The translations under genes were made by a program, and so were the position numbers. Positions 27,782-49,009 of a stretch of DNA of 64,000 bases are shown piece after piece (the stretch's first letter is position 1; every line of letters begins with the position of its first letter). The notes under the pieces were generated by a model, which saw nothing but the letters and a program-made list of their open reading frames with translations, was not told the origin of the DNA and made no database searches. The DNA comes from a virus. The stretch spans positions 1-64,000 of IMG/VR virus record IMGVR_UViG_3300021373_002801. One strand, 5' to 3'.

Positions 27782-28846
27782 ATGGCACAGTTTAATCTCC
27801 AAACATCGTTTGATGAACTTACACTAGCAACAGGAACAACTGCCCAAAGACCAGGCGCTCCAGTAAATGGTATGATAAGATACAATACCACTATAAGTTT
27901 GTTAGAGTTTTATGATGGATCAAATTGGAGACCTGTAACAGGATTTTCACAAGGTAATATTGGCTCAGGTGGACAAAGTATACTAAAAAAAGGAAATAGT
28001 ATTGTTCATATGTTTACCACCACAGGCAACCACACATTTACTCCTGCTCACTCAGGATACGTACAAGTATTAGTAGTAGGTGGCGGTGGCGGAACTGGCG
28101 GCGGCTGGACTGGTGGCGGCGGCGGTGGCGGAATGATTTTTAACAGATCATTCCCTGTAAGCGCAGGTTCAGGATATGGCATAACTGTAGGCGGCGGCGC
28201 AGGCCGTGGTTCACGTAGTAATGGTGGCAATAGTGTATTTTCAACCATCACAGCAAATGGTGGCGGCTACGGCGGCTGGTGGTCCGGCGGTGATGCTGCT
28301 CCCGGCGGATCCGGCGGAGGTGGAGGAAACTCTAGTGCAGACGGAAGTAGACGCAGAGAGCCAGGCGGCTTAGGAGTTACAGGACAAGGCTTTCCAGGAG
28401 GAAGCGGTGTAAGATTCCATGATGACGGAACAAATACTCACAATGGCGGAGGTGGTGGAGGTGCTGGCGGACCAGGACTAGACAGCCAAGACGAAGCACA
28501 AGGTCAACCGACACACGGGGGTCCAGGTGCAGCATCAGACATATTAGGCGATACCCTTTATTGGGGTGGCGGTGGCGCAAGCGGACCACACATCTGTGAT
28601 GGTGGCGGTGGCAACGGCGGCGTTGGCGGCGGAGGAGGAGGAGCTGCACACTATGTTCCTAGATATCCAACTGTTGGTAACGGACGTGGTGGCGGACAAA
28701 GTTTAAACAAAGGGCAAAATGCAACTAACAATGACGGTCATGCAAGATATGGAGGCGATGGAGCAGCTAATACTGGCGGTGGTGGCGCACATGGCGGATC
28801 AGGTCATGGCGGTGGTGGCTCTGGTATAGTTGTAGTGAGGTACTAA
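27782..28846 (+). CDS. Glycine-rich fibre-tip/adhesin-like protein 1
   Basis: TAQRP N-terminus, then 'VLVVGGGG' and poly-Gly blocks separated by variable loops; ends 'GSGIVVVRY'. Confidence 0.8.
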   Translation: MAQFNLQTSFDELTLATGTTAQRPGAPVNGMIRYNTTISLLEFYDGSNWRPVTGFSQGNIGSGGQSILKKGNSIVHMFTTTGNHTFTPAHSGYVQVLVVGGGGGTGGGWTGGGGGGGMIFNRSFPVSAGSGYGITVGGGAGRGSRSNGGNSVFSTITANGGGYGGWWSGGDAAPGGSGGGGGNSSADGSRRREPGGLGVTGQGFPGGSGVRFHDDGTNTHNGGGGGGAGGPGLDSQDEAQGQPTHGGPGAASDILGDTLYWGGGGASGPHICDGGGGNGGVGGGGGGAAHYVPRYPTVGNGRGGGQSLNKGQNATNNDGHARYGGDGAANTGGGGAHGGSGHGGGGSGIVVVRY

Positions 28847-28847
28847 T

Positions 28848-29984
28848 ATGGCAGATTTAAAAAATACAATAATTAATGACACAGGATTTTTAACACTTCC
28901 AGTGGGTAATACAGCTCAAAGACCGTCGCCTGCATCTGGAATGATACGTTTAAACAATTCTAATAACTTAATGGAATTTTACGATAGCGGTGGCTGGCGA
29001 CCAATCACTGGAGTTTCAAAAGGAAGTATTGGCTCAGGTGGACAAAGTATACTATACAACGCAAGTCATTCCGGAAAACACGGTGGCGTTTTACACATAT
29101 TTACAACCACAGGAAACCATACATTTACACCTGCATTTAGTGGAACAGTAGAAGTTCTAGTAGTAGGTGGAGGCGCATCTGGCGGCGGACACTTAGGTGG
29201 TGGCGGAGGTGCTGGCGGAATGATTTTCAACAGAGCATATCCGGTATCAAACGGAAGCGGAATAAACGTCACTGTTGGTACTGGAGGACCTGCTAATAAC
29301 TACGGAAGATCACCTCCAGGTTTCCAAGGTGGAAACAGTGTATTTGGATCACTTACTGCTGATGGCGGTGGAGGAGGAGGATCATGGGACGGCAACGCAG
29401 CTCGAGCAGGTGGCTCAGGAGGCGGAGGTTGTACTGGTTCTAACGGAAACGGATCAAACGGACACACTGGACCAAACAATAGTCGTAACACCAACATGGG
29501 CGGTCGTGGAGTAACTGGCGAAGGCTTTCCTGGAGGCTCAGGCATAAGATTTAACAGACAAGGTGAAGATTCACACAAAGCCGGCGGCGGAGGTGGCGCT
29601 GGTGGACCTGGATGGAGTTCAGAAGATGATTGTCACGAAGGACGTAATGGATCAGGTGGCCCAGGCGCAGCAAATGATATACTAGGATACACGCTTTATT
29701 GGGCAGGTGGTGGTGGCGGAGCATGCCATGTAGGAAATGAAACACACGGTTCGTCGGGTGGTATTGGTGGAGGCGGAGGTGGTACTATGAACCACGGACA
29801 GCCAAGAAGACCTCCAGGAGGTAAAAGCAGTACTGGCGGCGGCTATGCTTACAACAACGGTGGTGGAGTTAATTCAAGCGGTTATGAAGGTGGCACAGCA
29901 GGTGCAAACACAGGTAGCGGATCAGGCGGAGCATATGGCTCAGCTAAAATTGGAGGCACTGGAATAGTGATAGTAAGGTACTAA
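28848..29984 (+). CDS. Glycine-rich fibre-tip/adhesin-like protein 2
   Basis: Paralog of 27782 with the same architecture; ends 'GIVIVRY'. Confidence 0.8.
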   Translation: MADLKNTIINDTGFLTLPVGNTAQRPSPASGMIRLNNSNNLMEFYDSGGWRPITGVSKGSIGSGGQSILYNASHSGKHGGVLHIFTTTGNHTFTPAFSGTVEVLVVGGGASGGGHLGGGGGAGGMIFNRAYPVSNGSGINVTVGTGGPANNYGRSPPGFQGGNSVFGSLTADGGGGGGSWDGNAARAGGSGGGGCTGSNGNGSNGHTGPNNSRNTNMGGRGVTGEGFPGGSGIRFNRQGEDSHKAGGGGGAGGPGWSSEDDCHEGRNGSGGPGAANDILGYTLYWAGGGGGACHVGNETHGSSGGIGGGGGGTMNHGQPRRPPGGKSSTGGGYAYNNGGGVNSSGYEGGTAGANTGSGSGGAYGSAKIGGTGIVIVRY

Positions 29985-29985
29985 T

Positions 29986-31122
29986 ATGGCAGATTTAAAA
30001 AATACAACAATAGGTACAACAAATGCAGTTGAACTTCCGGATCAAAATTTATCAGCTACAACAGGTTCTGCAAAACTTAGATTTAACACTACTGGTAGTT
30101 TAAATGCATTAGAGTTTTATGATGGATCAAATTGGAGACCTGTGACAGGATACAGTCAAGGTATTGTAGGTACAGGCGGACAAACTATTAACTATACTGA
30201 TCACGGTATTGTGCATATATTTACTACCACAGGAAACCATACATTTACACCATCTTTTACAGGTAATGTACAAGTAATGGTAGTAGGTGGCGGTGGTGCT
30301 AGTGGTTATGATTGGTCCGGCGGTGGCGGCGGTGGTGGAGTTATCTTTAACAGATCATTTCCAGTAAGCGCAGGCAGTGGTTATAATGTTACAGTAGGTG
30401 CAGAAGGCCGTGGAGGAAACGGCGCAGGAGGATCACCTACGATTGCAGGCCAAAACGGAGGTAATAGTGTATTTTCAACTATAACTGCTCAAGGCGGTGG
30501 CGGAGGTGGCTCTTGGCGTAACGGTTCGCCACAGGGTTATGATAATGGACACTCGTCTGGACGTACAGGTGGATCAGGCGGTGGCGGCAGTAATTCTAGA
30601 GACGATGGAAGTAGGCGTAGACACTTAGGTGGCAGGGATACAGACGGTCAAGGTTATCCAGGTGGATCTGGTGTTAGATTTAATGCTAATAGTGAAAACG
30701 CTCACTTAGGTGGCGGTGGTGGTGGAGCCGGCGGCGGCGGCGCAAGTGCACCTGACGGTCGTCAAAACTATAGAGGAAGTTTTCGTGGAAATCAAATTTC
30801 GGGCGGAGCAGGCCGTGCTACAGACTTGCTTGGTGGAACATTATATTTTGGTGCTGGCGGAGCAGGTGGTGGACACCTAGGTTGGAATGTTAATGGCAAT
30901 GCTGGAGGCATTGGCGGTGGAGGTGGAGGTAGTTTCCATCACAGCGGACCTTATGGTGGACCAAGAAAGATTGGCCAAGGTGGCGGACAAAGTCTTAATA
31001 ACGGCCAAGATGGATTTCCAACAGCACGTGGCGGCTCAGGCGGATCACACACCGGCAGCGGTGGCGGTGGCGGACAATGGGGATATCCAGGCGGTAACGG
31101 TGTTGTTATAGTTAGATATTAA
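29986..31122 (+). CDS. Glycine-rich fibre-tip/adhesin-like protein 3
   Basis: Paralog of 27782 and 28848; ends 'GVVIVRY'. Confidence 0.8.
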   Translation: MADLKNTTIGTTNAVELPDQNLSATTGSAKLRFNTTGSLNALEFYDGSNWRPVTGYSQGIVGTGGQTINYTDHGIVHIFTTTGNHTFTPSFTGNVQVMVVGGGGASGYDWSGGGGGGGVIFNRSFPVSAGSGYNVTVGAEGRGGNGAGGSPTIAGQNGGNSVFSTITAQGGGGGGSWRNGSPQGYDNGHSSGRTGGSGGGGSNSRDDGSRRRHLGGRDTDGQGYPGGSGVRFNANSENAHLGGGGGGAGGGGASAPDGRQNYRGSFRGNQISGGAGRATDLLGGTLYFGAGGAGGGHLGWNVNGNAGGIGGGGGGSFHHSGPYGGPRKIGQGGGQSLNNGQDGFPTARGGSGGSHTGSGGGGGQWGYPGGNGVVIVRY

Positions 31123-32687
31123 TCGTTATAAAAGTTTTCTTTTAAGAACGCATACAAAGATGGAACATGTTTAATTGCATTGTTCCATTTTTCTTTGCGT
31201 TGATCTAAGTTGTCTATCATATCTTTAAACTCGGATTTTTTATCTATGTGTTTAGGGAATATTTTGTTCAACACAGTAACATCGTTTGCATTCCAATTCA
31301 TACCTGCCGCCAAACAGTTTACTCCGTCATCGTCTTGTAGGAAATCAACAAAGTTTTTTTGGTAAATGCTTTGATAATATAGTCCTTGTGTTTGTAAATT
31401 ATTTAACGCTGGCATAAGATTGGTATAGCTCTTTTGTGTAATATCTTTCCAATATTTACTGTCATTTCTATGACTTAATGCATAGTGCATACTTACGAAA
31501 TTTGCCCAATAGTTAAATGTATCGTCGCATACAAGATTAAATTCGTCTCTATCCCATTGACTAATGCTGTTAGATCTTACTAACATTCTTACTAAATTTG
31601 TTGCAAAATCGTGGGTAGTAAGTAAGCCTGTACTTTCTAAAGGCTCAATAAATCCTGCACTTAATCCTATAGCTACAACATTCTTAACCCAAAGTTTTTC
31701 ATGTATGCCTACTCTCATCTCAATATCTTTAAAAGTGCAATTAGATGTATCATATCCTTTACTGTTAAGATGTGTTATAAAATCAATTTTTGCTTGTTTG
31801 GGATTTATATAATTATCGCTATAAACATACCCAGTACCAATCCTTGACCATAAAGGAATATTCCAGACCCAACCATTTTCTAATGCACTACAGTCTGTTA
31901 CACTATCTAGTTGTTTTTCCTTATCAGTGTAATCTACTCTTGTTGCCCATGCTCTATTATTTGGTAAAATATGTTCATAACTTTTAAAAGGAACTTTCAT
32001 CGCTTTACCTAGTAATAAACTATTGAAGCCTGTACAGTCTATAAATAAATCTCCAAATATTTTATCGCCATTGTCTAATACTATGCTATCAATGCCTATA
32101 TCTGATTTATTACAAGTAACAACTTCCCCATTTACATATTTTACTCCTAAGTTTTTACAAAATTTATCTCTAAGCCATATACCTAATTTAGCAGCATCAA
32201 AATGAAAAGCAGTATCATTATAAAAATCAAATCCTTTTAAATCAGGATGATCAACAAGCATTTTATTTTCTTTTACTAATGACATTTGAGGATAGTAACA
32301 ATCTACGTAATCATCTGAAGGCGTTTCTGGATATAAAGTTTTTTTAATAAACCAATCATCTCTTTGGTGCATACAATTATCAAATAACGGCTGTCCAAAG
32401 GGATAATACCAAGACCCGCTGTCATGTTTATGAAAGTTATTAAATTTTATAGCAAGTTTGTAACTTGCATCTGTTTCTTTTACAAAATCTTTATCGTGTA
32501 TTCCTACCATCCTTAACCAAGCACGTATTCCTCCTACTGTACTTTCGCCAACTCCCACTGTAGGTATATTAGGACTTTCTACTACAGTAATATTAACATT
32601 GTTAATCTGAGATGCTATTGTAGCGGCAGTCATCCATCCGGCACTACCTCCTCCCACTATAATAATATCTTGTATATCACTGCTCAT
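31119..32687 (-). CDS. Flavin-dependent tryptophan halogenase-like protein 1 (PrnA family)
   Basis: GGGSAG FAD motif, GVGEST, catalytic-Lys region ASYKLAIKF, FIDCTGF, WVWNIP, FIEPLESTG. Confidence 0.9.
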   Translation of the reverse strand: MSSDIQDIIIVGGGSAGWMTAATIASQINNVNITVVESPNIPTVGVGESTVGGIRAWLRMVGIHDKDFVKETDASYKLAIKFNNFHKHDSGSWYYPFGQPLFDNCMHQRDDWFIKKTLYPETPSDDYVDCYYPQMSLVKENKMLVDHPDLKGFDFYNDTAFHFDAAKLGIWLRDKFCKNLGVKYVNGEVVTCNKSDIGIDSIVLDNGDKIFGDLFIDCTGFNSLLLGKAMKVPFKSYEHILPNNRAWATRVDYTDKEKQLDSVTDCSALENGWVWNIPLWSRIGTGYVYSDNYINPKQAKIDFITHLNSKGYDTSNCTFKDIEMRVGIHEKLWVKNVVAIGLSAGFIEPLESTGLLTTHDFATNLVRMLVRSNSISQWDRDEFNLVCDDTFNYWANFVSMHYALSHRNDSKYWKDITQKSYTNLMPALNNLQTQGLYYQSIYQKNFVDFLQDDDGVNCLAAGMNWNANDVTVLNKIFPKHIDKKSEFKDMIDNLDQRKEKWNNAIKHVPSLYAFLKENFYND

Positions 32688-33405
32688 AGGGACATCCTTT
32701 TAATTTTGCTAGACTTTTATATCTTTCGTTTAATGGTCTAAATGTATGTTCGTTACGTATATTATTGCATAATTTTATATCTTCCCATGGACACTTTTGT
32801 TGTTGTAGTTTTACAATATTATCACTGTAAAATTTAAAATATGCAATAGCATCGCCTTTTTTGATTTTAATTTTATCTTTTATTTTTTTACATTCAAATA
32901 CAATTTCAGCAGGTCTTGTCCATTTTGCAATGTCAAACTCGCCAGGATATAATGTTGTTTTGTCTGTAAAATCGTTGTAGTGCAAAAATGCAGGTAGCAT
33001 TTGCATTTGCATACTGTCTGATGTTTGGAAAATATTTAACCAATCAATACCTATCATAGGATATACATTCTTTCCACGTTGACTATCAAACAAAAATCTG
33101 GTGTCAATTAAACAATTAAATTGTTCTTGATTAAGATTAGGACATGTAATTTTTACATCACCAGTTTTTTCATTTACATCTATTTCAATAGTAAGATCGT
33201 ATGGAGCATGAAACACAAACATATTCTTTATGAAGTCTGTATGTGCTGGACACTTTAAAACAATATTTCCTTTACGTTCGCTAATATAAGTTTTTTGTAG
33301 AGGAACTAAAACATCTTGCGAATTATCTAACAAATCAATTAAACACGCAGGATGGTCTATATCCCATTCACTGCTGGTTATAAACGACCAATTAATTAAT
33401 GCCAT
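32677..33405 (-). CDS. Hypothetical protein (CPA...PG.FD...W.RP...IKKGD), possibly a dUTPase-like beta fold
   Basis: 242-aa ORF translationally coupled between two halogenase genes; the fold is a guess. Confidence 0.6.
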   Translation of the reverse strand: MALINWSFITSSEWDIDHPACLIDLLDNSQDVLVPLQKTYISERKGNIVLKCPAHTDFIKNMFVFHAPYDLTIEIDVNEKTGDVKITCPNLNQEQFNCLIDTRFLFDSQRGKNVYPMIGIDWLNIFQTSDSMQMQMLPAFLHYNDFTDKTTLYPGEFDIAKWTRPAEIVFECKKIKDKIKIKKGDAIAYFKFYSDNIVKLQQQKCPWEDIKLCNNIRNEHTFRPLNERYKSLAKLKGCPYEQ

Positions 33406-34867
33406 GTTTTTTTATTTCTCTTAATCTATCTAATTCTGTGCTATGATGATGTCCGTCTAAATATCTAAATTTTTCAAATTCAACATAATTCTTTATTATT
33501 ATGTTTTTTGCTGTTTCCTTATCTATACCAATATTTTTTTCTGTTAACTTATATCCTAGTTGAATAAGGAATATTGTCCAATTAGGGCCACCAAACATTG
33601 TGTTATATTTAACTGTAGTAGGTAGTTGTATATTGGGATTTTTAAAGTCTTCGATATAACTTAACATCTCATCACTGGGGACAAAAAGGTCGTTTACATA
33701 ATTCCAAAAAGGTGTAGTCCTAATATTATCTGCATAATGCATTGCAACGAAGTTAACACAATTTTCAAATACAATTTTCATTTGTATGTTAAAATAATCA
33801 ACTTCGTTTTTTGTATAGTGATTTTCGTTTAATATTCCGTTTAACTGACCAACTGCATAGGTCATTAGTGCTACACCTGAACTTTCTAAAGGTTCAATAA
33901 ACCCTGCGCTAAGTCCTATACTTACAATGTTATCGTGCCACTGATCTTCGTTATAATAAGGATCCCAATTTATTACTTTTAAATTATCTTTATCTATTCT
34001 ATTATCCCAATAATCTACAAAATAATTTTTAGCATCATCTATATCAGTTATGTTCCTGTTGAATAGCATACCAGTACCAATTCTATCTTGTACAGGTATT
34101 TTCCAAACCCATCCATGATCTACAGCATCGCATTTGACATACGGGGTTAGTTCATTTTCCCTATCATTGTACGGAACATGCCCTGCAATAGCAGTGTTAA
34201 CAAATAAACGTTTGTCCAAATTTACACGTTTACAATTTTTTCGTAAAACTTGTTTAAACCCAGTGCAGTCGATATACAAATCGCTTTTAATTATGTCGCT
34301 GTTTTGTAAATGTAAACAGTCTATACCTTCATTTTGATTATAATCAATATCGATTACATCACTGTTTATAATAGTAACTTTGTTTTCTAATTTTTTCCTT
34401 ACATAAGACACAAGTTTACCACAATCAATGTGTACAGCATAGCGTTCTAATTCTGTCATGTCTACACTATTTTTCATGCTATTTTCATAAAACGCTGTAC
34501 AATATTTTTTAAAATCTAAATCCTGCACATTTGTATATAGATCATAAAGATTCCAGTTTTTTAAAATTCTATCATTGCCTTTATAAAAAGGGTGCCAAAT
34601 ATCTTCACCAGGTTTTTGCCAATTCGTAAAAAGTATACCTGACTTATAAGCACTTTTTATTTCTAAAAACCAATCTTCTATAGGAAATCCTGCTTCCTCA
34701 AGAAACGGTCTAAAAGTTAAAAGCGTAGCCTCTCCAACACCAATAGGTTCTGGTACTTCTTTGTCAACTACAGTAATGTTAATATGTGGTTGTCTATGGC
34801 TAAGATATGCAGCTGTAAGCCATCCAGCAGTACCGCCGCCTACAATAGTAAGTGTGTTGACTTTCAT
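33392..34867 (-). CDS. Flavin-dependent halogenase-like protein 2
   Basis: GGGTAG, GVGEAT, SAYKSGILF, WVWKIP, FIEPLESSG. Confidence 0.9.
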   Translation of the reverse strand: MKVNTLTIVGGGTAGWLTAAYLSHRQPHINITVVDKEVPEPIGVGEATLLTFRPFLEEAGFPIEDWFLEIKSAYKSGILFTNWQKPGEDIWHPFYKGNDRILKNWNLYDLYTNVQDLDFKKYCTAFYENSMKNSVDMTELERYAVHIDCGKLVSYVRKKLENKVTIINSDVIDIDYNQNEGIDCLHLQNSDIIKSDLYIDCTGFKQVLRKNCKRVNLDKRLFVNTAIAGHVPYNDRENELTPYVKCDAVDHGWVWKIPVQDRIGTGMLFNRNITDIDDAKNYFVDYWDNRIDKDNLKVINWDPYYNEDQWHDNIVSIGLSAGFIEPLESSGVALMTYAVGQLNGILNENHYTKNEVDYFNIQMKIVFENCVNFVAMHYADNIRTTPFWNYVNDLFVPSDEMLSYIEDFKNPNIQLPTTVKYNTMFGGPNWTIFLIQLGYKLTEKNIGIDKETAKNIIIKNYVEFEKFRYLDGHHHSTELDRLREIKKHGIN

Positions 34868-34889
34868 ATATTGTATCCTTTGTTTAATG

Positions 34890-34901
34890 TACTTATAAAT
34901 A
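34890..34901. promoter_or_regulatory. Overlapping divergent late promoters (+ TATAAATA 34894-34901; - TATAAGTA 34897-34890)
   Basis: Both motifs lie in the 39-bp gap between divergent genes. Confidence 0.6.
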
Positions 34902-34906
34902 TTGCT

Positions 34907-35482
34907 ATGCTTATAGTTGACGATCTGATATCAAAACCGTATCAAGAAGAAATAAAAGAAAATTTCTTAGATATTGAAAATAAAAATTCTTATAAGTTTC
35001 CTTGGTCTTTTGTGCCGGATGTAACATCGGCAGATGTTGGCATTGTTGCTCCAGCAATGATGCATAATTTTTGTTGGGAGCGGGGAAATTATTCTCAATA
35101 TTTTGATTTAGTTGAGCCAATTGCAATAGCAGGAGCAAATGCAGTAAACTATCCTGCAACCACAGTAATACAAGCTAGAAGTTTTTTACAATATCCTCTA
35201 AGCAAAACATTTCACGATAAACAAGTTGATCGCTTGCATATAGATTTAGATTATAAACATTTGGTTGTGCTATATTATGTTTTAGATTCTGATGGCGATA
35301 CTATTATAACAAATAAAACATATGACGAACATAATGAACATTATTTAGATAAAATTGATGATGTTGTAATGCGAGTCACACCAAAACAAGGTAGAGCTGT
35401 AATTTTTGATGGTAAGTACTATCATACAGCAGAACAGCCTAAAGATAATTTGAGATGCATTATAAATTTTAATGTAGAGTAA
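34907..35482 (+). CDS. 2OG-Fe(II) oxygenase-like protein
   Basis: HID...LYYV.DSDGDT...FDG..YHTA...R..IN. Start reassigned to ATG 34907 because the called 34784 start overlaps the halogenase gene. Confidence 0.8.
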   Translation: MLIVDDLISKPYQEEIKENFLDIENKNSYKFPWSFVPDVTSADVGIVAPAMMHNFCWERGNYSQYFDLVEPIAIAGANAVNYPATTVIQARSFLQYPLSKTFHDKQVDRLHIDLDYKHLVVLYYVLDSDGDTIITNKTYDEHNEHYLDKIDDVVMRVTPKQGRAVIFDGKYYHTAEQPKDNLRCIINFNVE

Positions 35483-35485
35483 AAA

Positions 35486-37318: not shown

Positions 37319-37322
37319 ATGA

Positions 37323-39404: not shown

Positions 39405-39430
39405 TTTAGTATTTTCCTTTTAATGTTAAC

Positions 39431-39438
39431 AATAAATA
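39431..39438 (+). promoter_or_regulatory. Late promoter core (AATAAATA)
   Basis: Lies 5 nt before ATG 39444. Confidence 0.6.
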
Positions 39439-39443
39439 TCTGT

Positions 39444-43085: not shown

Positions 43086-43717
43086 TAAAAATCCTCTGTC
43101 GCTAATCCGGAGTTAAAAGCCATGTTAATCCTTTTCCGATCAATAGGGTTATTATGTACTTTGTGTATTAAATAACTTGGAAATAATAGTATATCTCCAT
43201 CCTTAGGTTCATAATATGAAGTTCCATGATAAGGCCAAGAAACATGTGTTGTTCTATGCATATAATGTTGTGGTATAAATTCAATCGCTCCAGTTCCTGT
43301 GCCTTGAAAGTAAAAAACTCCACTTACTAAGTTTGCACTAGATGTGTGAGCATGTTCTCGATTTTCTGCACCCTTTTCATTCATATTGAACCAAGCATCT
43401 ACATTCCACTGAGTTGATATTTCTACATCTTGTATATTTAAGTTATTAGGTTTAGGTAAAGCAGACATGTATTGGTTTGAAACTTCTAAAATTTTATTTA
43501 CAAGGTACTGTTGTGTTTGCTCATCAAATCCATTGTGTAAATGCGGCTTCCCCCTCCAGCATCCAAAATGACTATTTTTTAACATTTTTATATCTGCATT
43601 CAGTGTTTGATCTTTATATATTTTAATTTGATTACTAATTTTGTCACACATTGCTTGTGGAATTTCATTTTCCATGTGTAATATAATTGTTTGATCAATA
43701 ATATTTAAATTATGCAT
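43085..43717 (-). CDS. 2OG-Fe(II) oxygenase, HxH type (TIGR02466-like)
   Basis: HAH...SGVFY...FPSYLIHKV...RINMAFN. Confidence 0.85.
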   Translation of the reverse strand: MHNLNIIDQTIILHMENEIPQAMCDKISNQIKIYKDQTLNADIKMLKNSHFGCWRGKPHLHNGFDEQTQQYLVNKILEVSNQYMSALPKPNNLNIQDVEISTQWNVDAWFNMNEKGAENREHAHTSSANLVSGVFYFQGTGTGAIEFIPQHYMHRTTHVSWPYHGTSYYEPKDGDILLFPSYLIHKVHNNPIDRKRINMAFNSGLATEDF

Positions 43718-44315
43718 ATGTAAATACTACTACTACTCGTCTTTCGTGTAATGACGGATATTTATGGGCATGATAACAACCTTTAAATTGTGATACTTGC
43801 CATTTTTGTGCAGGTAATTCGTTCCAATCATTTATTTCCTCGTTCCATACTAGCGTAGGAGCTGTTGGATTATCTGTTAGATATAGTAACCAATTATAGT
43901 GATGCCAAGTATGATCTTCATGCGGCACGGTTATAGCATTTTCGCCATTATACCAATTACAATTTACATTTGCTCTAAAAATATTATGATAAGATTTGTT
44001 ATTTTGGCTCATCCAATTATGAAAAATTTCAAAAAAGAATTCTGCATACCCTTCACTAAAATGATCAGTTGGTCTATCAGTGTGTTTAACATGTTCTTCT
44101 TCAGTTCTGCGTAGAAGTGCATGACTTAAGAAAGGACCATTTACATATGATCCCTGTTTTATTTTTTCGGGAGTATTTTCAGGTGGAATATAAGTTGTTT
44201 GTTTAGATACATAGTACCAAGGAAAATGATAACCTAAAACATCATTTTCAATAATTGCTTTGTGCTGGTCCGACAGTAGTCCATCTGAATATGTTGTATC
44301 TTTTGGTAAAATCAT
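43710..44315 (-). CDS. 2OG-Fe(II) oxygenase-like protein
   Basis: FPWYY, PHED...LLYL...YHAH...RRVV; start reassigned to ATG 44315. Confidence 0.75.
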   Translation of the reverse strand: MILPKDTTYSDGLLSDQHKAIIENDVLGYHFPWYYVSKQTTYIPPENTPEKIKQGSYVNGPFLSHALLRRTEEEHVKHTDRPTDHFSEGYAEFFFEIFHNWMSQNNKSYHNIFRANVNCNWYNGENAITVPHEDHTWHHYNWLLYLTDNPTAPTLVWNEEINDWNELPAQKWQVSQFKGCYHAHKYPSLHERRVVVVFTYA

Positions 44316-44320
44316 ATACA

Positions 44321-44328
44321 TATTTAAC
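44321..44328 (-). promoter_or_regulatory. Late promoter core variant (GTTAAATA)
   Basis: TAAATA lies 5 nt before ATG 44315 on the minus strand. Confidence 0.5.
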
Positions 44329-44389
44329 GATAAATGACACATAGCTTATGAAATACGAATCAAAAAAATATTAAATAATAATGTGCGTA

Positions 44390-44397
44390 GATAAGTA
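44390..44397 (+). promoter_or_regulatory. Late promoter core variant (GATAAGTA)
   Basis: Intergenic, upstream of SD GGAGG. Confidence 0.4.
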
Positions 44398-44424
44398 AAT
44401 GTGTATGCTACCTGGAGGAAAGAA

Positions 44425-45042
44425 ATGAACACAGAAAATTCAAGCGGATTTACACAGCCAGCTATGGAACGCACCGAATCGGATAAGCCAGACCAAGAAG
44501 CAAGTTTACAGATTACTTCAATAAACTTTAATCCACTGTTTGACAACGAGGAAGTCAAAACCATATGTGAAAATACTATTGACGAACTTTGGATGCCTAT
44601 CAAAGTTATGGGTAACGAAGATTTACATAAAGGGTTTAGGCAAAAGCTAAGAGGAGATGTTGCAGATTTTCCTTTTACTAAGATTAGAGATATAACAAAA
44701 TCTGCAAACGATCAAATCTACAATTTTGATCTATTAGGGATTATTGATCAAGATTTCCCCCAAGTCTATAAATATACTGAAGAATGTTATTATAAAACCC
44801 ATATAGATTTGAATGTTCTTGCACCTACAAGAAAAATTACTTGGATAATAAATTTATCAGATGAAGACGAATACGAAGGTGGAAATATTTCTTTTTTAAA
44901 TATTGACACTACCGAAGTAAATACTAACACAAAGGGATCAATTTTAATTTTTCCTTCTTTTATACCTTATAGTATTGATAAAATTACTAAAGGAGAAAAG
45001 AAATTTATTGTTGGTCATGTGCATGGAGCTGTTTTCCGTTGA
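44425..45042 (+). CDS. PKHD/prolyl-hydroxylase-like 2OG-Fe(II) protein with a degenerate metal site
   Basis: HID...RKIT..INLS...YEGG...FPSFIPY (His replaced by Tyr); start follows GGAGG. Confidence 0.75.
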   Translation: MNTENSSGFTQPAMERTESDKPDQEASLQITSINFNPLFDNEEVKTICENTIDELWMPIKVMGNEDLHKGFRQKLRGDVADFPFTKIRDITKSANDQIYNFDLLGIIDQDFPQVYKYTEECYYKTHIDLNVLAPTRKITWIINLSDEDEYEGGNISFLNIDTTEVNTNTKGSILIFPSFIPYSIDKITKGEKKFIVGHVHGAVFR

Positions 45043-45827
45043 TTTTAGATTATGATTATTGGTATTTTGAAAAAGCAATAGATCCATCCCTCTGTGATCA
45101 TATAATTCAACAGGGTCTTGCAAAAATGAAAGCACAAGAAGATCAATTTGGTAAAGAAGTATCTATTGCCACTACAGGTGGTTGGCAACACAAAGGGTCT
45201 GAAGGCTACAAAAAAGCAGTAAATGATAAATCTATAGAAGAATTAAAACAAGAAGGATTAGATCCTTCTGAAGCATATGTAAGAGACTCAAACATTACAT
45301 GGCTAAACGACGAACCTTTGTTTGAAATGGTTCAGGCTTTTGTTAAAGAAGCTAACATACAAGCAGGTTGGAATTTTGATTGGGATTATACCGAAGAATT
45401 TCAATTTACAAAATATGGACCAGGCCAATTTTACGGATGGCATGTTGATATGGGCTCAAAACCCTATCGTGAATTTAAACCTGAAGAAGATAATTGGAAA
45501 CTTAATCCTAACGGAACTCCCATGTTAGATACATTTGGTAATCCTTTGACTGAAGATAATTTAGCAACTTCAAATCCTAATTTAATTGGTAAGATAAGAA
45601 AACTAAGTGTGACAATTAGTTTAAATAAACCTGAAGAATACGAAGGAGGAAATTTAAAATTTGACTTTGGACCGCATGCCGATGAAAGATTCCATGAATG
45701 TACAGAAATTAGACCACAAGGCAGTGTTATAGTATTTCCATCACATGTCTACCACCAAGTAACACCAGTCACAAAAGGTACAAGATATAGTTTAGTGGGT
45801 TGGAATTTAGGATATCCATTTAGATGA
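45039..45827 (+). CDS. PKHD/prolyl-hydroxylase-like 2OG-Fe(II) oxygenase
   Basis: QFTKY...WHVD...RKLS...YEGG...FPS..YHQVTPVTKGTRYSLV.W; TTG start. Confidence 0.9.
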   Translation: MILDYDYWYFEKAIDPSLCDHIIQQGLAKMKAQEDQFGKEVSIATTGGWQHKGSEGYKKAVNDKSIEELKQEGLDPSEAYVRDSNITWLNDEPLFEMVQAFVKEANIQAGWNFDWDYTEEFQFTKYGPGQFYGWHVDMGSKPYREFKPEEDNWKLNPNGTPMLDTFGNPLTEDNLATSNPNLIGKIRKLSVTISLNKPEEYEGGNLKFDFGPHADERFHECTEIRPQGSVIVFPSHVYHQVTPVTKGTRYSLVGWNLGYPFR

Positions 45828-46468
45828 CAAATCCAGAGCTTTTTAAACAAAATTTATATGTTGACTGTAAATCAATCGTACCAAAAGATATATGCAATCT
45901 AGTATCTAAATACTGTTTGATGAGAGAAGAAAATAAATTAGATGCACCTGAAGAAGCAGACGGCCAAGTACCATTTTCTCATAGCGTGTACGGTGATACA
46001 CTAATGGAAACATTAGAATTTTTCTTGCTACCCTATATGGAATCAAATACTGGACTGAGACTAGCTCCTACTTACAGTTATTATAGAGTATATAGGCCCG
46101 GAATGGAACTTGAAAGGCATAAAGATAGAGAAAGTTGCGAAATAAGCACATCGGTGTGTTTTGATTTTAAATATAACGATACATCAGAAGATTATCATTG
46201 GAGTATGTATGTAGATAAAGAATCTGTAAATACACCTGTACTGGGAGATTTTGTAAGTGCGGGTAATCCAGGAATTCCAGTACAACAGTCACCAGGTGAT
46301 ATTTTAATATATAGAGGTGTTGATATCGAACATTGGAGAGATCCTTTTGTAGCAGGAATAAATAGTTATCATATACAAGGATTTTTCCATTATATAGACA
46401 AAGACGGACCTTTTTATCCTGAATGGGTATATGACAAGCGTCCTAGATTAGGCTATAAAGAATTTTAG
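45824..46468 (+). CDS. 2OG-Fe(II) oxygenase-like protein
   Basis: PTYSY.RVY...L.RHKDR.SCEIS...GD..IYRG...EHWR...Q.F.HY. Confidence 0.8.
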   Translation: MTNPELFKQNLYVDCKSIVPKDICNLVSKYCLMREENKLDAPEEADGQVPFSHSVYGDTLMETLEFFLLPYMESNTGLRLAPTYSYYRVYRPGMELERHKDRESCEISTSVCFDFKYNDTSEDYHWSMYVDKESVNTPVLGDFVSAGNPGIPVQQSPGDILIYRGVDIEHWRDPFVAGINSYHIQGFFHYIDKDGPFYPEWVYDKRPRLGYKEF

Positions 46469-46474
46469 ATTTTG

Positions 46475-46505: not shown

Positions 46506-46946
46506 ATGGCTATTAAAAATGTCCCCGCAAGCGATGTAGTTGCTGTTCAAGATGCATGTTATGTGATGGGTGTAGAAGAAGTTTGGTGCAGAATCAAATT
46601 TAAAGACTGTGAAAACTTTTGTGAATACCTTGCAATGCCTGATTCAGATGAACCACTTTCAAGAGAGCTTTACACAAAATTAAATAATGGTGACTACGGT
46701 GAATTATCACACGGAACTGATAGCTATCGTACACAGCCAAAAACTCAAGCTGAGCTAGAAGCAGACGTAAAAGCAACTAGAAACCAGCTACTACTAGAAT
46801 CAGATTTTTCTGGGTTACCTGATGTATCTGCTTCAATGACTGCTAGTAAAAGAGCAGAATGGTCTGCATATAGAACAGCGTTACGTGATCTTACTACACA
46901 AACTAGATTTCCTTGGGATCCAGATTGGCCAACTAAGCCGTCATAA
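46506..46946 (+). CDS. Tail fibre assembly chaperone (Tfa-like)
   Basis: C-terminal 'RNQLL.ESD...LPD...W.AYR.ALRDL..Q..FP....WP.KP'. Confidence 0.85.
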   Translation: MAIKNVPASDVVAVQDACYVMGVEEVWCRIKFKDCENFCEYLAMPDSDEPLSRELYTKLNNGDYGELSHGTDSYRTQPKTQAELEADVKATRNQLLLESDFSGLPDVSASMTASKRAEWSAYRTALRDLTTQTRFPWDPDWPTKPS

Positions 46947-46978: not shown

Positions 46979-46986
46979 TATAAATA
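46979..46986 (+). promoter_or_regulatory. Late promoter TATAAATA
   Basis: Exact consensus upstream of groES. Confidence 0.8.
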
Positions 46987-47013
46987 CCATGCAATGTCGT
47001 TACTAAGGAGAAG

Positions 47014-47322
47014 ATGATGCAGGTATTTGAACCTATACGAGATAGACTTCTTGTAAAAAAAGTCGAAGACGAAAATAAAACAAAGTCAGGTCTTGTTCTT
47101 TCTGATGACACTAAAGAACGCCCCACTAAAGGCGAAGTTATTAGTGTAGGACCAGGTAAGATCAATGATGATGGTAAGTTATTAGATATGGTTGTACAAG
47201 CAGGAGACATGATTGTTTACCCGCGCTACGCAGGACACCAAATTAAAATTAACAAAGAAGAATTTTTAATTTTAGAAGAACACGAAGTTCTTGGAAAATT
47301 AAAAGGAGAAGATAATGTCTAA
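47014..47322 (+). CDS. groES: Co-chaperonin GroES (Cpn10)
   Basis: 'P..DRLLVK..E.E.KTKSGLVL....KE.P..GEV..VGPG...V..GD...Y.G..IK'. Confidence 0.95.
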   Translation: MMQVFEPIRDRLLVKKVEDENKTKSGLVLSDDTKERPTKGEVISVGPGKINDDGKLLDMVVQAGDMIVYPRYAGHQIKINKEEFLILEEHEVLGKLKGEDNV

Positions 47323-49009
47323 AATTATTCATAGAGTAGTTGTTCAGGGTGCACCAGGACGTAAAAAGATAATCGACGGTGTTAACATACTTGCAAATGC
47401 AGTTAAGGTAACACTTGGACCTAAAGGTAGAAACGTAATTTGTCAAAGAACGTTTGGTCCGCCTCATGTAACAAAGGATGGAGTTACTGTTGCGAAAGAA
47501 ATTTGGTTAAAAGACAAACTTGAAGATACTGGTGTTCGTATGATTAAGCAGGCGGCTACACAAACATTCCAAGATATTGGTGATGGAACAACTACAGCAA
47601 CACTGTTAGCCCAAAAAATGATCAACGAGGGCAATAAATTTTTAACAGCAGGTATCAGTGGCATTAATTTAAAAAGAGGTATGGATATAGCTGTAGAAGC
47701 AGTGATGAAAGAACTTAAAGCTGATGCAAAAGTTTGTAAAGATAGAGCATCAACTGAAGCTGTTGCAACCATTGCAACCAACAATGATCCTAAGTTAGGT
47801 AAACTAATTACAGATGCTCTTGGCGGCGACAACGCAACACACGAAGCACTGGTATCAGTTGAGCCAGGTATGAATTATTATGATGAGCTTGTTAATGTTA
47901 ACGGATTTCAATACGAACACGGATACCTATCTCCACAATTTGTTAATGCAGATAAACAAAAATGTATTTTAGAAAATCCGCTAATTTTAATTTGTGACAG
48001 ACCAATTTTAAATATGAATGATGTTTTACCTATACTAGAAAAACTAGTAGAAACTAAACGTCCATTTTTAATTATGGCCGAAGAAGTAGAGCAAGACGTG
48101 CTTGCTACATTGGTAATAAACAACTTAAACGGATCTATACAATGTTGTGCGGTTAAACCACCAGATTGGAAAGGCAAGATGCGTACAAAATACTGCGAAG
48201 ATATTGCTGTACTGACAGGCGGAACTGTAATTTCTGATCAAACAGGTAGAAAAGTAGAAAGTGCCGAATTAGAAGATTGCGGAGTAGCAAATAGAATAGA
48301 GATTACCGATAGTCAGGTAACTATTATTGGCGGCCACGGCGACAAAGACACTATTGCAAAATATATAGATGAAAAAATTAAACACTATATTGGTGCTCCT
48401 AGAGGAGATGACGTTTTTACTGACAAAGGCCAAGAAAAACGTATTAGTAACCTAACCGGTGCTGTGAGTATTATTAGAGTTGGATCAGCAACAAAAATTG
48501 AACTGCGCGAAAAAGAAGACAGAATTGATGATGCTCTTCATGCTACAAAAGCGGCTCTAAAAGATGGTATTGTACCAGGTGGCGGAGTTGCATTAATACG
48601 TGCGATGAACAAAGTGAAAGATCTTAAAGGTGCAAATTCAGAACAGGATGCAGGTATACAAGTTGTTCTCAAAGCGTTACAAGAGCCGTTAAGGCAAATT
48701 GTTATAAATGCAGGTGATAGTCCCGATGTTGTTGCAAATGAAGTAAACAAAGGTGATGCTGAATTTGGTTACGATGCATCTACAGGCGAATACGGAAATA
48801 TGTTTAATATCGGTATTATTGATCCTATTACTGTTGTACAAAAAGCTCTTATGAATGCTGCAAGTATTGCAGGATTACTGCTAATGACAGATTGCGCTAT
48901 ATACGAAGACAACGATGAAGATGATATAACTGTCCTTGGCCCTTCGCCTAGTGCAGGTGAAAAAGTATTGCCGCCCCAATACGACCAAGGTAACGGTGAT
49001 ACATACTAA
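47315..49009 (+). CDS. groEL: Chaperonin GroEL (Cpn60), phage-encoded
   Basis: AVKVTLGPKGRNV, TKDGVTVAKEI, GDGTTTAT, DDALHATKAA, GIVPGGG, GIIDP. Confidence 0.95.
   Translation: MSKIIHRVVVQGAPGRKKIIDGVNILANAVKVTLGPKGRNVICQRTFGPPHVTKDGVTVAKEIWLKDKLEDTGVRMIKQAATQTFQDIGDGTTTATLLAQKMINEGNKFLTAGISGINLKRGMDIAVEAVMKELKADAKVCKDRASTEAVATIATNNDPKLGKLITDALGGDNATHEALVSVEPGMNYYDELVNVNGFQYEHGYLSPQFVNADKQKCILENPLILICDRPILNMNDVLPILEKLVETKRPFLIMAEEVEQDVLATLVINNLNGSIQCCAVKPPDWKGKMRTKYCEDIAVLTGGTVISDQTGRKVESAELEDCGVANRIEITDSQVTIIGGHGDKDTIAKYIDEKIKHYIGAPRGDDVFTDKGQEKRISNLTGAVSIIRVGSATKIELREKEDRIDDALHATKAALKDGIVPGGGVALIRAMNKVKDLKGANSEQDAGIQVVLKALQEPLRQIVINAGDSPDVVANEVNKGDAEFGYDASTGEYGNMFNIGIIDPITVVQKALMNAASIAGLLLMTDCAIYEDNDEDDITVLGPSPSAGEKVLPPQYDQGNGDTY

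Follow-up and report, generated by a model that had tools for sequence, protein, structure and literature searches.

Background

In cyanomyoviruses of the Syn9/Syn10 type, an enzyme cluster (gp41–gp54 in Syn9) encodes halogenases, several unrelated families of 2OG/Fe dioxygenases, and a protein of the dUTPase fold that has a conserved Cys (Iyer et al. 2010, PMC2938197). In Syn9 it comes after the Gly_rich_2 genes gp38 and gp39. The Syn9 halogenase gp42 is essentially identical (1271 bits) to VirX1 from cyanophage Syn10 (PDB 6QGM), an enzyme with a large open active site that accepts bulky substrates and for which no natural product is listed (PMC8407142). MibH (PDB 5UAO), from a RiPP pathway, belongs to the same enzyme superfamily and acts on Trp within a ribosomal peptide. 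Glycine-rich fiber tips are known from cyanophage Pam3, in which the glycine-rich domain is a hypervariable receptor-binding tip that requires a Tfa-like chaperone (PMC9608196). The Pam3 proteins gp24/gp25 (7YPX) and the gp38 adhesin of Salmonella phage S16 are the known tips closest to those studied here, whose Gly-rich domain likewise combines variable loops with runs of conserved Gly. The Pam3 fiber gene is directly followed by that of its chaperone, and there are no tailoring enzymes.

Composition of the Island

The window analyzed here is a 64,000-nucleotide stretch of viral DNA. Positions 31119–46468 hold five intact flavin-dependent halogenase genes, 11 genes for 2OG/Fe oxygenase-like proteins, and one dUTPase-fold gene, flanked on one side by three Gly_rich_2 fiber-tip genes and on the other by a Tfa chaperone gene and groES/groEL (Table 1). 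Matches to Pfam and PHROG profiles, together with the identified flanks, confirm this arrangement, which an earlier note had proposed from the letters of the DNA alone. The catalytic motifs are intact in all 16 enzyme genes. The genes lie on both strands in six blocks, and the GC content across the island is 0.30–0.34, below that of the flanks.

The island is an enlarged version of the Syn9-type dioxygenase/halogenase cluster; that cluster was already known (Iyer et al. 2010, PMC2938197) and is not new here. The Syn9 homologues are gp41/gp42 for h1, gp51/gp53 for s2/s3, gp45/gp48 for s4–s8, and gp54 for s12. Five halogenases are found, whereas Syn9 has two, and the JmjC/MINA member of the Syn9-type cluster was not detected in this island. 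Unlike the Syn9 cluster, the island is spread over both strands, is bordered by GroES/GroEL and a Pfam-recognizable Tfa, and resides in a Rak2-like jumbo phage rather than a member of the Kyanoviridae. Assignment of the phage as T4-like was rejected; its capsid protein is 71% identical to that of Vibrio phage 2.275.O and 60–65% identical to those of the Rak2-like phages. The host of the island is an uncultured marine Rak2-like jumbo phage with a genome of roughly 365 kb, of which the 76.6-kb contig represents about 21%.

Table 1. Genes of the island and its flanks, with the evidence for each assignment
Gene	Position	Strand	Assignment	Evidence
	26975–27781	+	Short fiber protein, C-terminal Peptidase_S74 intramolecular chaperone domain	PF13884, E 8.5e-12
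gly1	27782–28846	+	Gly_rich_2 fiber-tip (adhesin-type) protein, 32% Gly	PF21722, E 4.9e-09
gly2	28848–29984	+	Gly_rich_2 fiber-tip protein	PF21722, E 5.5e-11; phrog_863 (gp38-type), E 2e-13
gly3	29986–31122	+	Gly_rich_2 fiber-tip protein	PF21722, E 2.5e-10
h1	31119–32687	-	VirX1-type clade I flavin-dependent halogenase	PF04820, E 1.1e-101; tree
s1	32677–33405	-	dUTPase-fold protein with conserved Cys, phrog_17480	AF2 model
h2	33392–34867	-	Clade I flavin-dependent halogenase	PF04820, E 1e-79; tree
s2	34907–35482	+	2OG/Fe oxygenase-like, phrog_274	E 4.5e-28; HxD..H..R
s3	35486–36097	+	2OG/Fe oxygenase-like, phrog_274, Syn9 gp51/gp53 type	Profile and alignment
s4	36094–36744	+	2OG-FeII_Oxy_5, PF13759	E 1.6e-23; HxH..H..R, alignment A6
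s5	36719–37318	+	2OG-FeII_Oxy_5, PF13759	E 2.2e-19
s6	37323–37961	+	Oxygenase-like, phrog_1644, Syn9 gp46/gp52 type	E 1.1e-33; HVD..H
h3	37944–39404	-	Clade II flavin-dependent halogenase	PF04820, E 9.9e-93; tree
s7	39444–40070	+	Oxygenase-like, PF13759	E 1.4e-19
h4	40060–41559	-	Clade II flavin-dependent halogenase	PF04820, E 1.7e-87
h5	41556–43085	-	Clade II flavin-dependent halogenase	PF04820, E 3.2e-96
s8	43085–43717	-	Oxygenase-like, PF13759	E 3.6e-15
s9	43710–44342	-	Oxygenase-like, phrog_274	E 2.2e-17; alignment A2
s10	44425–45042	+	Prolyl-4-hydroxylase-like oxygenase, PF13640	E 4.8e-08; phrog_61
s11	45039–45827	+	Oxygenase, PF13640	E 1.6e-14; phrog_61
s12	45824–46468	+	Oxygenase-like, Syn9 gp54 type, phrog_2954	E 8.9e-39; HxD..H
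tfa	46506–46946	+	Tfa-type tail-fiber assembly chaperone (Phage_tail_APC)	PF16778, E 1.7e-12
groES	47014–47322	+	Cpn10	PF00166, E 1.4e-28
groEL	47315–49009	+	Cpn60	PF00118, E 2.2e-66

Halogenases and Oxygenases

As the earlier note had read, the GxGxxG motif and the catalytic Lys are kept in all five halogenases, as are GVGE and the Glu of EP[LM]E. The WxWxIP motif is degenerate in h3 (WMFTIP) and h4 (WVWRGP), and h4 retains a YY motif resembling that of the bacterial free-Trp halogenases. The pairwise identities are only 26–48%, and the five are therefore old paralogues. The best solved relative of h1 is VirX1, which aligns over the full length with 348.7 bits (next match, 252 bits), and the tree places h1 in clade I, whose members accompany Gly-rich fiber genes. 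The likeness to VirX1 has limits, since the predicted halogenase h1 is about 37% identical to Syn9 gp42, and h3–h5 are of another type. The best solved relatives of h5 are bacterial Trp halogenases, and VirX1 scores only 158.6 bits with this protein. The search for a flavin reductase (PF01613) gave no match in the contig, in agreement with the earlier note; this absence says little because the contig covers so small a part of the genome.

The count of 11 oxygenase-like genes (s2–s12) stands, and the profiles resolve the previously estimated "at least four" subtypes into five families; 6 of the 11 proteins pass Pfam's own cutoff. The families are PF13759/phrog_81 (s4, s5, s7, and s8), phrog_274 (s2, s3, and s9), in which HxD..H..R is invariant in alignment A2, PF13640/phrog_61 (s10 and s11), phrog_1644 (s6), and phrog_2954 (s12), in which HxD..H is invariant in alignment A3. 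The PHROG labels "minor coat protein" for s6 and "ferrochelatase" for s12 are doubtful. A weak match of s6 to DUF6445 and an ESM Atlas lead from s12 to an Fe2OG dioxygenase were also noted. The assignment of s1 as an oxygenase was rejected, as the best 13 structural matches of its AF2 model (pLDDT 62) are all dUTPases (Z 5.0–6.8). It matches Syn9 gp43 weakly around the conserved Cys; a connection to DUF6065 in the ESM Atlas is a lead only.

Fiber-Tip Proteins

By profile match and predicted fold, gly1–gly3 are real fiber-tip proteins. The best match to the AF2 model of gly1 (pLDDT 65) is the Pam3 fiber 7YPX (E 6.9e-5), and the likeness to Pam3 extends to the Gly runs, the variable loops, and a Tfa-type chaperone encoded nearby. 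Unlike Pam3, 15.4 kb of enzyme genes separates the fiber-tip genes from the chaperone gene. The Peptidase_S74 fiber gene is found upstream of the Gly-rich genes here and in three other loci (L028, L034, and L121). All of the Trp motifs listed earlier (GGWTGG, GGWWSG, GSWDG, YDWSG, GSWRNG, LGWNV, and GQWGY) were located in the Gly-rich proteins. The loops had also been described as rich in W, H, Y, R, D, and N. Among non-Gly residues of the Gly-rich domains, enrichment holds for H (5.2-fold), R (1.9-fold), and W (1.6-fold), with P at 1.7-fold, but not for Y and N (about 1) or D, which is depleted (0.56).

Promoters and Strand Layout

The core ATAAATA occurs in 10 short intergenic stretches 5' of genes on the plus strand (s2, s7, tfa, and groES among them), and comparison with relatives demonstrated that the late-promoter cores 5' of s2–s6, s7, tfa, and groES are conserved. 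The likely true start of s2 is the ATG at 34907, 5 nt past TATAAATA at 34894–34901; that of s7 is the ATG at 39444, 5 nt past AATAAATA at 39431–39438, a geometry kept in seven relatives. Further copies of TATAAATA lie at 46475 upstream of tfa and at 46979 upstream of groES/groEL, and overall this sequence is not enriched (7 found versus 10.9 expected). The likely start of s10 (ATG 44425) is preceded by GGAGG. The claim that the island genes carry late-promoter cores thus holds for the plus-strand oxygenase groups but not for the five minus-strand halogenases, all of which are antisense to the late genes. No ATAAATA core was found 5' of any of the halogenase operons, and a one-mismatch TATAAGTA 25 nt upstream of h2 is the sole near-core at any halogenase. 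The 3' end of h1 overlaps the convergent end of gly3 by 4 nt.

Linkage to Gly-Rich Fiber Genes in Other Phages

The tie between the island and Gly-rich fiber genes holds well beyond the window. The whole island is syntenic in close and distant relatives (50–99% amino acid identity), with three Gly-rich genes on one edge and Tfa and groESL on the other. A Gly-rich fiber-tip ORF lies no more than 1.5 kb from the enzyme array in 17 of the 24 evaluable viral locus groups, which were de-replicated at 70% halogenase identity and are phylogenetically non-independent; PF21722 was matched by 9 of 10 sampled Gly-rich ORFs. A same-strand module of a Gly-rich gene followed by s11-like, h1-like, and s12-like genes recurs, and in the locus layouts of other phages s11 is the member that most commonly separates the Gly-rich gene from the halogenase. 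The module is present in two unrelated myophage lineages, the Kyanoviridae and the Rak2-like jumbo phage.

Among cultured phages, the enzymes adjoin Gly_rich_2 genes in Syn9, S-RIM44, P-TIM40, HTVC008M, S-SM1, and Syn33. In Syn9, S-RIM44, and P-TIM40 a tandem halogenase pair lies directly downstream of two or three Gly_rich_2 genes, and in S-SM1 an oxygenase array lacking a halogenase is downstream of a Gly_rich_2 gene. Between the fiber genes and gp13, S-RIM44 carries three Gly-rich genes, two halogenases, and an oxygenase array, whereas Syn1, of the same genus, has a tip protein that is not Gly-rich and a single oxygenase; this difference is a cassette swap.

Only the VirX1-type clade I (h1 and h2) shows a strict link. 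Clade II halogenases (h3–h5 type) are present in S-PM2, Syn1, S-H38, S-SRM01, and a complete 134.5-kb contig that encodes an h5 relative (75% identical), all of which lack a Gly_rich_2 gene, and they are 65–87 kb distant from the Gly_rich_2 gene in P-SSM2 and S-B64. Conversely, S-SM1 and Syn33 have Gly_rich_2 genes and no halogenase. Of the two kinds of linkage that the earlier note proposed to check, co-localization is observed, but co-variation of halogenase and Gly_rich_2 presence among 17 genomes is not significant (Fisher p = 0.33). The fiber-to-neck region of the Kyanoviridae is known to vary, so that inherited position, and not shared function, may account for part of the adjacency.

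Proposed Function

From the observed gene content, catalytic motifs, and conserved gene neighborhood, tailoring of the fiber proteins by the island enzymes is plausible but unproven. We tentatively suggest that the island acts on the Gly-rich tips, as a Syn9-type cassette within an adhesin/Tfa unit that would hydroxylate and halogenate their loops. The oxygenases, made late with the fibers, would hydroxylate side chains of the variable loops, with Pro, His, Arg, Asn, and Asp as candidate residues, and the VirX1-type h1 and h2 would halogenate exposed aromatic residues. Tfa and GroES/GroEL could then aid folding and trimerization of the tips, and altered receptor binding or tip stability would be expected. 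The clade II enzymes h3–h5 probably have another or an additional substrate, since their relatives work in phages without such tips. The repeated placement beside fiber tips may also offer a guess at the substrate of viral halogenases such as VirX1.

The open active site of VirX1 and its acceptance of bulky substrates (PMC8407142), as the nearest solved relative of h1, count in favor of tailoring. So do the tandem arrangements in cultured phages, the cassette swap within one genus, the recurrence of the module in two lineages, and the conserved late-promoter cores at the oxygenases, tfa, and groES. Counted against it are the modest enrichment of Trp, the antisense placement of the halogenases and their lack of ATAAATA cores, the presence of clade II halogenases without Gly_rich_2 genes and of Gly_rich_2 genes without halogenases, the lack of significant co-variation, and the variable-site character of the Kyanoviridae region. 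We know of no flavin-dependent halogenase that acts natively on a full-size folded protein. MibH performs the chemistry proposed here, yet it ranks with the weakest of the solved relatives (1.1e-44 for h5). The interpretation of the earlier note is partly supported; its description of a RiPP-like line is not, because a gene for a precursor with a leader is absent and the proteins proposed as substrates are structural ones of 354–378 aa. The island also lacks machinery of the lanthipeptide or lasso type and leaves no room for a small precursor gene.

Secondary metabolism was proposed for the Syn9 cluster (Iyer et al. 2010, PMC2938197), and the enzymes might act instead on small molecules or free amino acids, so that a halogenated, hydroxylated metabolite (perhaps derived from Trp/indole, perhaps a non-ribosomal peptide or a compound of the host) is built or altered during infection and the adjacency to fiber genes is a mere legacy of a variable insertion site. 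The kinship of h5 with bacterial free-Trp halogenases, the similar YY motif of h4, and the lack of late promoters at the halogenases fit this explanation. So do clade II relatives found among metabolic genes without a Gly-rich gene: gp061 of S-RIM44 is beside talC and hli, and the halogenase of locus L015 adjoins a dehydrogenase and a gp46-like nuclease. We nevertheless regard it as rather unlikely, for Pfam and PHROG profiles revealed neither a synthetase nor a carrier protein or exporter within the island or close to it, and this reading leaves unexplained both the persistence of clade I and s11/s12 beside Gly-rich tips in two lineages and the cassette-wise swapping of enzymes with tip genes.

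Tight adhesin–enzyme linkage and cassette exchange would likewise arise if the enzymes act not on the adhesin itself but on a target that varies along with adhesin specificity, such as host envelope or receptor precursors (to block superinfection or reduce sticking of progeny to debris) or further proteins of the virion or the host. P22-like phages, in which serotype-converting genes adjoin the tailspike genes, follow a similar logic, and this reading would be compatible with minus-strand halogenases that are expressed early or in the middle period. This possibility is improbable given that the island has no membrane, secretion, or sugar-handling gene, that prediction makes the enzymes soluble proteins of the cytoplasm, and that such chemistry on bacterial receptors has no known precedent. 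Still less probable is an assemblage of auxiliary genes that were acquired independently of one another and share no pathway. The low GC content and the strand mosaic could be read in this way, as could one relative in which h4/h5 are 99% identical versus about 75% elsewhere, and Sullivan et al. (2010) suggested roles for cyanophage oxygenases in the 2OG level (draining 2-oxoglutarate) and in DNA repair. However, no catalytic motif of the 16 genes has decayed, the gene order is kept across about 50% amino acid divergence, and the same enzyme families co-occur repeatedly in many lineages.

Source Phage and Gene Content

The DNA belongs to a 76.6-kb IMG/VR viral contig that is 21% complete according to CheckV. 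The major capsid protein shares 71% identity with the counterpart in Vibrio phage 2.275.O (349 kb) and 60-65% with those of the Rak2-like jumbo phages 121Q, PA5oct, CBB, and GAP32. On these capsid identities, the source phage is assigned as a jumbo myophage of approximately 365 kb rather than a T4-like cyanophage. The phage was detected in metagenomes of salt marshes and seawater from 16 or more studies. Nearly all genes in the window are plus-strand late structural genes, including those for the capsid and for baseplate-wedge-like proteins as well as several fibre genes (660-2060 aa).

The island at 31119-46468 contains 17 tightly packed genes, which comprise five halogenases (h1-h5), eleven oxygenase-like genes (s2-s12), and one further small gene, s1. 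On its 5′ side are genes for a short fibre that carries a Peptidase_S74 chaperone domain and for three Gly_rich_2 (PF21722) proteins in which Gly makes up 30-32% of the residues; on its 3′ side are a Phage_tail_APC (Tfa) gene, groES, and groEL. The enzyme genes are placed between adhesin genes and a presumptive chaperone. A DNA megablast search of the island against cultured phages returned zero matches. Since the cultured capsid relatives have neither a halogenase nor a Gly_rich_2 gene, the module was probably acquired horizontally. The features are collected in the table.

Positions and assignments of the features discussed
Feature	Position	Strand	Assignment or remark
Major capsid protein	467-1639
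gly1-gly3, glycine-rich fibre-tip proteins	27782-31122	+	PF21722
gly3/h1 convergent 3′ overlap	31119-31122		4 nt
h1, halogenase	31119-32687	-	clade I
s1, small gene	32677-33405	-	dUTPase-fold (model)
h2, halogenase	33392-34867	-	clade I
Core to ATG before s2	34894-34909
s2, s3, s9			phrog_274; invariant HxD..H..R
s4, s5, s7, s8	36094-37318, 39444-40070, 43085-43717		PF13759/phrog_81; invariant HxH..H..R, not HxD..H
s6			phrog_1644
s10, s11			PF13640/phrog_61
s12			phrog_2954; invariant HxD..H
s6/h3 convergent 3′ overlap	37944-37961		18 nt
h3, halogenase	37944-39404	-	clade II
Segment near-identical in L004	39423-43085		s7, h4, h5
Core to ATG before s7	39431-39446
s7/h4 convergent 3′ overlap	40060-40070		11 nt
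h4, halogenase	40060-41559	-	clade II
h5, halogenase	41556-43085	-	clade II
Subtilase-domain protein	50350-54261		1303 aa
Second fibre module	64001-76580		contig past window
Fourth Gly_rich_2 gene	~75201-76580		contig past window

Enzymes of the Island

All five halogenases match PF04820 with scores of 269-341 bits, relative to a cut-off of 21 (E values of 1e-79 to 1e-101). The GxGxxG motif and the catalytic lysine (K79 position of PrnA) are retained in all five, as had been read from the sequence in the earlier note, together with GVGE and the conserved glutamate (E346 position). The catalytic lysine aligns with that of solved Trp halogenases. The WxWxIP motif is intact in h1, h2, and h5 and degenerate in h3 (WMFTIP) and h4 (WVWRGP). 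The pairwise identities among the five proteins are only 26-48%, and therefore these predicted flavin-dependent halogenases are old paralogues or separate acquisitions. No match to the flavin reductase family PF01613 was found in the 76.6-kb contig, which represents ~21% of the genome.

A quick maximum-likelihood tree separates the halogenases into two well-supported clades. Clade I (SH-aLRT of 99 in this quick tree) contains h1, h2, Syn9 gp41/gp42, and S-RIM44 gp164/gp165; clade II contains h3, h4, h5, the HTVC008M enzyme, and S-RIM44 gp061. The best solved relative of h1 is VirX1 (348.7 bits versus 252 for the next match), which in turn is essentially the same protein as Syn9 gp42 (1271 bits). 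Judged from these matches, clade I is the VirX1 clade, with h2 assigned to it by the tree only; h5 is nearer to bacterial Trp halogenases than to VirX1. VirX1 is an iodinating enzyme, has a large, open active site that takes bulky substrates, and is listed without a natural product (PMC8407142). The related locus L004 (IMGVR_UViG_3300040806_002483) encodes h5, h4, and s7 homologues whose identities to the window proteins are 99%, 98%, and 94%, relative to 64-84% for all other island genes, which suggests that ~3.6 kb was exchanged between phage lineages by recent recombination.

The previous count of eleven oxygenase-like genes holds, and the subtypes, put earlier at four or more, resolve into five families. 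The HxD/E...H iron triad and a distal Arg or Lys for 2OG are present in s2, s3, s6, s9, s10, s11, and s12. This triad is absent from the alignment of all four PF13759 members, which still match that family at 1e-15 to 1e-23. The HxH...H...R pattern of these proteins is also invariant in homologues from Syn9, HTVC008M, and the viral locus L015, and a three-His metal site is possible. A double-stranded beta-helix fold is possible for s3, s9, and s12, which have no Pfam match; the profile-profile (hhalign) matches between the oxygenase families are weak (E of 5e-4, probability of 32%). No solved relative was found in the PDB by sequence for the s2/s3/s9, s12, and s1 profiles.

The PHROG labels "DNA endonuclease V" (phrog_274), "ferrochelatase" (phrog_2954), and "minor coat protein" (phrog_1644) were rejected as probable mis-annotations because they do not fit the motifs, and the invariant HxD..H..R patterns point to oxygenases. 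The same three labels stand in the RefSeq annotation of Syn9, S-RIM44, S-SM1, and HTVC008M, where they are probably wrong as well. The assignment of s1 as a twelfth oxygenase was also rejected. The best 13 structural matches to its AlphaFold model (a modest pLDDT of 62) are all dUTPases, with Z scores of 5.0-6.8, and its Cys52-Pro motif aligns with Syn9 gp43. On this model, s1 is a dUTPase-fold protein with a conserved cysteine.

Relationship to the Syn9 Cluster

Iyer, Abhiman, de Souza and Aravind (2010) described a cluster in Syn9 in which a tandem run of ten dioxygenases, drawn from five or more families, is joined by two tryptophan halogenases and by a dUTPase-fold protein that has a conserved cysteine, and proposed halogenated secondary metabolites as the product (PMC2938197). 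For the oxygenases, other authors have suggested the tuning of 2OG levels or DNA repair. The island proteins have direct homologues in the Syn9 cluster and in Pelagibacter phage HTVC008M. As in Syn9, several unrelated dioxygenase families, here five, are combined with halogenases, here also five, in a single array that includes a dUTPase-fold protein with a conserved cysteine (s1). Unlike Syn9, whose gp49 matches JmjC_2, the island has no JmjC/MINA-type member. The cluster type has been in print since 2010; the island adds a large member to it, from a phage lineage new to the type.

The earlier proposal of a RiPP-like tailoring line does not hold in the strict sense. The island genes abut or overlap, the longest intergenic gaps are ~40-80 nt, and neither a short precursor gene with a leader nor leader-recognition or processing domains were found in the island by domain searches and inspection of these gaps. 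No paper connecting the halogenases with fibre proteins of the glycine-rich kind came up in a literature search.

Glycine-Rich Fibre-Tip Proteins

PF21722 was found in all three glycine-rich proteins, which align with conserved Gly runs and variable loops. The best structural match to the gly1 model (pLDDT of 65) is the fibre of cyanophage Pam3 (7YPX; E of 6.9e-5, TM scores of 0.38/0.51), followed by Bxb1 tail-tip proteins and, weakly, the glycine-rich domain of ALK. In the Pam3 fibre domain, glycine-rich motifs are stacked and the distal tip, which binds the receptor, is hypervariable; the domain is similar to the S16 gp38 adhesin and folds with a Tfa-like chaperone (PMC9608196). The loops had been described as rich in W, H, Y, R, D, and N. 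The quoted Trp motifs are all present, and His (5.2-fold), Arg (1.9-fold), Pro (1.7-fold), and Trp (1.6-fold) are enriched in these domains, but Tyr and Asn are not, and Asp is depleted. Complex prediction for h1 with a glycine-rich domain gave a score of 0.05, which weighs neither for nor against binding.

Genomic Linkage of Enzymes and Fibre Tips

A total of 115 viral loci were collected using relatives of h5 and h1 as anchors. The glycine-rich families were searched by profile, since tblastn with a glycine-rich protein returned only one 52-aa N-terminal match because of low-complexity filtering. The close relatives carry the entire island in order at 60-99% identity. Most of the island is also present in more distant relatives (50-65%), where it is bounded by groESL and Tfa on one side and by two or three glycine-rich genes on the other. 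The loci anchored on h1 (45-50% identity) contain a recurrent same-strand module of one to three glycine-rich genes followed by an s11-like oxygenase, a halogenase, and an s12-like oxygenase. After de-replication at 70% halogenase identity, a glycine-rich ORF lies within 1.5 kb of the enzyme array in 17 of the 24 evaluable locus groups, and none is found in the other seven. Nine of ten sampled ORFs are PF21722 proteins, and the tenth matches the glycine-rich domain of ALK/LTK. The frequency of 17 in 24 groups is far above a crude random-placement null (~6%), for which any p-value is illustrative only since the groups are related. The arrangements in complete genomes of cultured phages are summarized in the table.

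Gly_rich_2 genes and enzyme genes in complete genomes of cultured phages
Phage	Gly_rich_2 genes	Enzyme genes
Syn9, S-RIM44, P-TIM40	2-3	tandem halogenase pair directly behind, then oxygenase array
HTVC008M	1	oxygenase array adjoining; halogenase 8 kb off
S-SM1	1	no halogenase; an oxygenase array follows
Syn33	1	flanked by oxygenase-like genes; halogenase absent
P-SSM2, S-B64	1 each	single halogenase, 65-87 kb distant
S-PM2, Syn1, S-H38, S-SRM01	0	single halogenase
P-SSM4, P-HM1, S-SM2, Syn19, Vibrio 2.275.O	0	none

The cassettes of Syn9, S-RIM44, and P-TIM40 are co-directional with structural genes throughout. In S-RIM44 the cassette of three glycine-rich genes, two halogenases, and an oxygenase array is located between a giant fibre gene and the neck gene gp13, and the same locus of Syn1 encodes a tip protein that is not glycine-rich (12% Gly) and a single oxygenase. 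By gene content, this locus varies as a cassette within one genus.

Clade I adjoins glycine-rich genes in essentially every evaluable case, and clade II is mixed. Solitary clade II enzymes surrounded by metabolic genes occur in S-RIM44 and in a complete 134.5-kb contig, which encodes an h5 relative of 75% identity and lacks Gly_rich_2 genes. The reverse test, on neighbours of glycine-rich loci, covered 17 cultured genomes; in this non-random sample the presence of halogenase and Gly_rich_2 genes does not co-vary significantly (Fisher p = 0.33).

Expression Signals

Copies of the exact T4 late core TATAAATA show no enrichment in the window (7 found versus 10.9 expected). ATAAATA occurs 17 times, and 10 of these copies are in short intergenic stretches just 5′ of plus-strand genes in the context [TGA]ATAAATAC[TC]. 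Before s2 and s7, the core reads [TA]ATAAATAT and is followed by four bases and ATG. This geometry, with the core 5 nt from the start codon and no Shine-Dalgarno sequence, is kept in seven relatives despite diverged surroundings and suggests late, leaderless or near-leaderless transcripts for the plus-strand oxygenase blocks. The late core is absent before all three minus-strand blocks, which contain all five halogenases; the best candidate there is the one-mismatch TATAAGTA, 25 nt before h2. The late-promoter cores previously ascribed to the enzyme genes are therefore borne out for part of the oxygenases and for tfa/groES, and unsupported for the halogenases.

Scans for sigma-70 promoters and terminators were at chance level. 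Contigs from salt-marsh RNA libraries match gly2/gly3, h1, h3, h5, s2, s7, s12, and tfa with 0-1 mismatches; carried-over DNA is possible, strand and timing are not given, and these matches are not counted as proof of expression. The convergent 3′ overlaps of gly3/h1, s6/h3, and s7/h4 leave no room for terminators, and therefore the transcripts of the two strands collide or overlap as antisense RNA.

Interpretation

Marine phage genomes commonly encode halogenases and 2OG oxygenases, which have for two decades been filed as auxiliary metabolic genes without substrates. To our knowledge, VirX1 is the sole viral halogenase characterized so far, and we know of no natural target for it. The neighbourhood described here persists over deep divergence, recurs in two myophage lineages that are unrelated, and is kept through gains and losses of whole cassettes. 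It speaks for a functional link of glycine-rich fibre tips with the VirX1-type halogenases and the core oxygenases of the s11 and s12 types, and more loosely with the other oxygenases. The simplest mechanism for this neighbourhood may be that the phage enzymes covalently tailor the tip proteins before chaperone-assisted assembly. We hold this view tentatively because the halogenases here do not seem to be timed with late transcription, clade II enzymes plainly work in phages that lack such tips, and cyanomyoviruses vary in the fibre-to-neck region. The more specific proposal is that, ahead of assembly, phage enzymes covalently hydroxylate the receptor-binding tips and also place I, Br or Cl on their Trp, Tyr or His residues; we consider it less likely than not. 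If true, glycine-rich adhesins would be the natural substrate of the VirX1-type viral halogenases, and this would be the first flavin-dependent halogenase to act on a full-size structural protein, with chemical diversification of host recognition.

The enzymes could instead perform small-molecule chemistry, with a linkage to the tips that is merely positional. The metabolic surroundings of some clade II enzymes and the variability of the fibre-to-neck site are compatible with this explanation, the recurrence of the clade I arrangement across two phage lineages is less so, and on balance we think it unlikely, if worth serious attention. A host component or other target that co-varies with adhesin specificity would also keep enzymes and tips together, including their exchange as one cassette; it seems improbable to us. 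That the genes share no common pathway is, in our view, very improbable.

In a published proteomics study of marine phage virions, the modification search was limited to phosphorylation, acetylation, and Met oxidation. The value of the present analysis lies in a substrate hypothesis for viral halogenases and in their division into fibre-linked and free-standing clades. Since VirX1-type halogenases and specific oxygenases are conserved neighbours of glycine-rich tips, these tips become a concrete candidate substrate, and one open to testing with the cultured phages Syn9/Syn10, S-RIM44, and P-TIM40 and with an enzyme already available in purified form. If the pairing reflects tailoring, virion chemistry would be a new axis of host-range variation; otherwise, the division of the clades tells which halogenases to try on proteins and which on small molecules.

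Additional Observations

Directly 3′ of groEL and a 428-aa fibre-like gene is a gene whose 1303-aa product carries a subtilase (Peptidase_S8) domain at the N terminus; the place of this gene is kept in the relatives. The h1/glycine-rich junction is also the break point of several related contigs. Past the window, the contig (L121) continues with a second fibre module that contains fibres, a p107-like gene, an S74-domain protein, and a fourth Gly_rich_2 gene, which stops exactly at the contig end.
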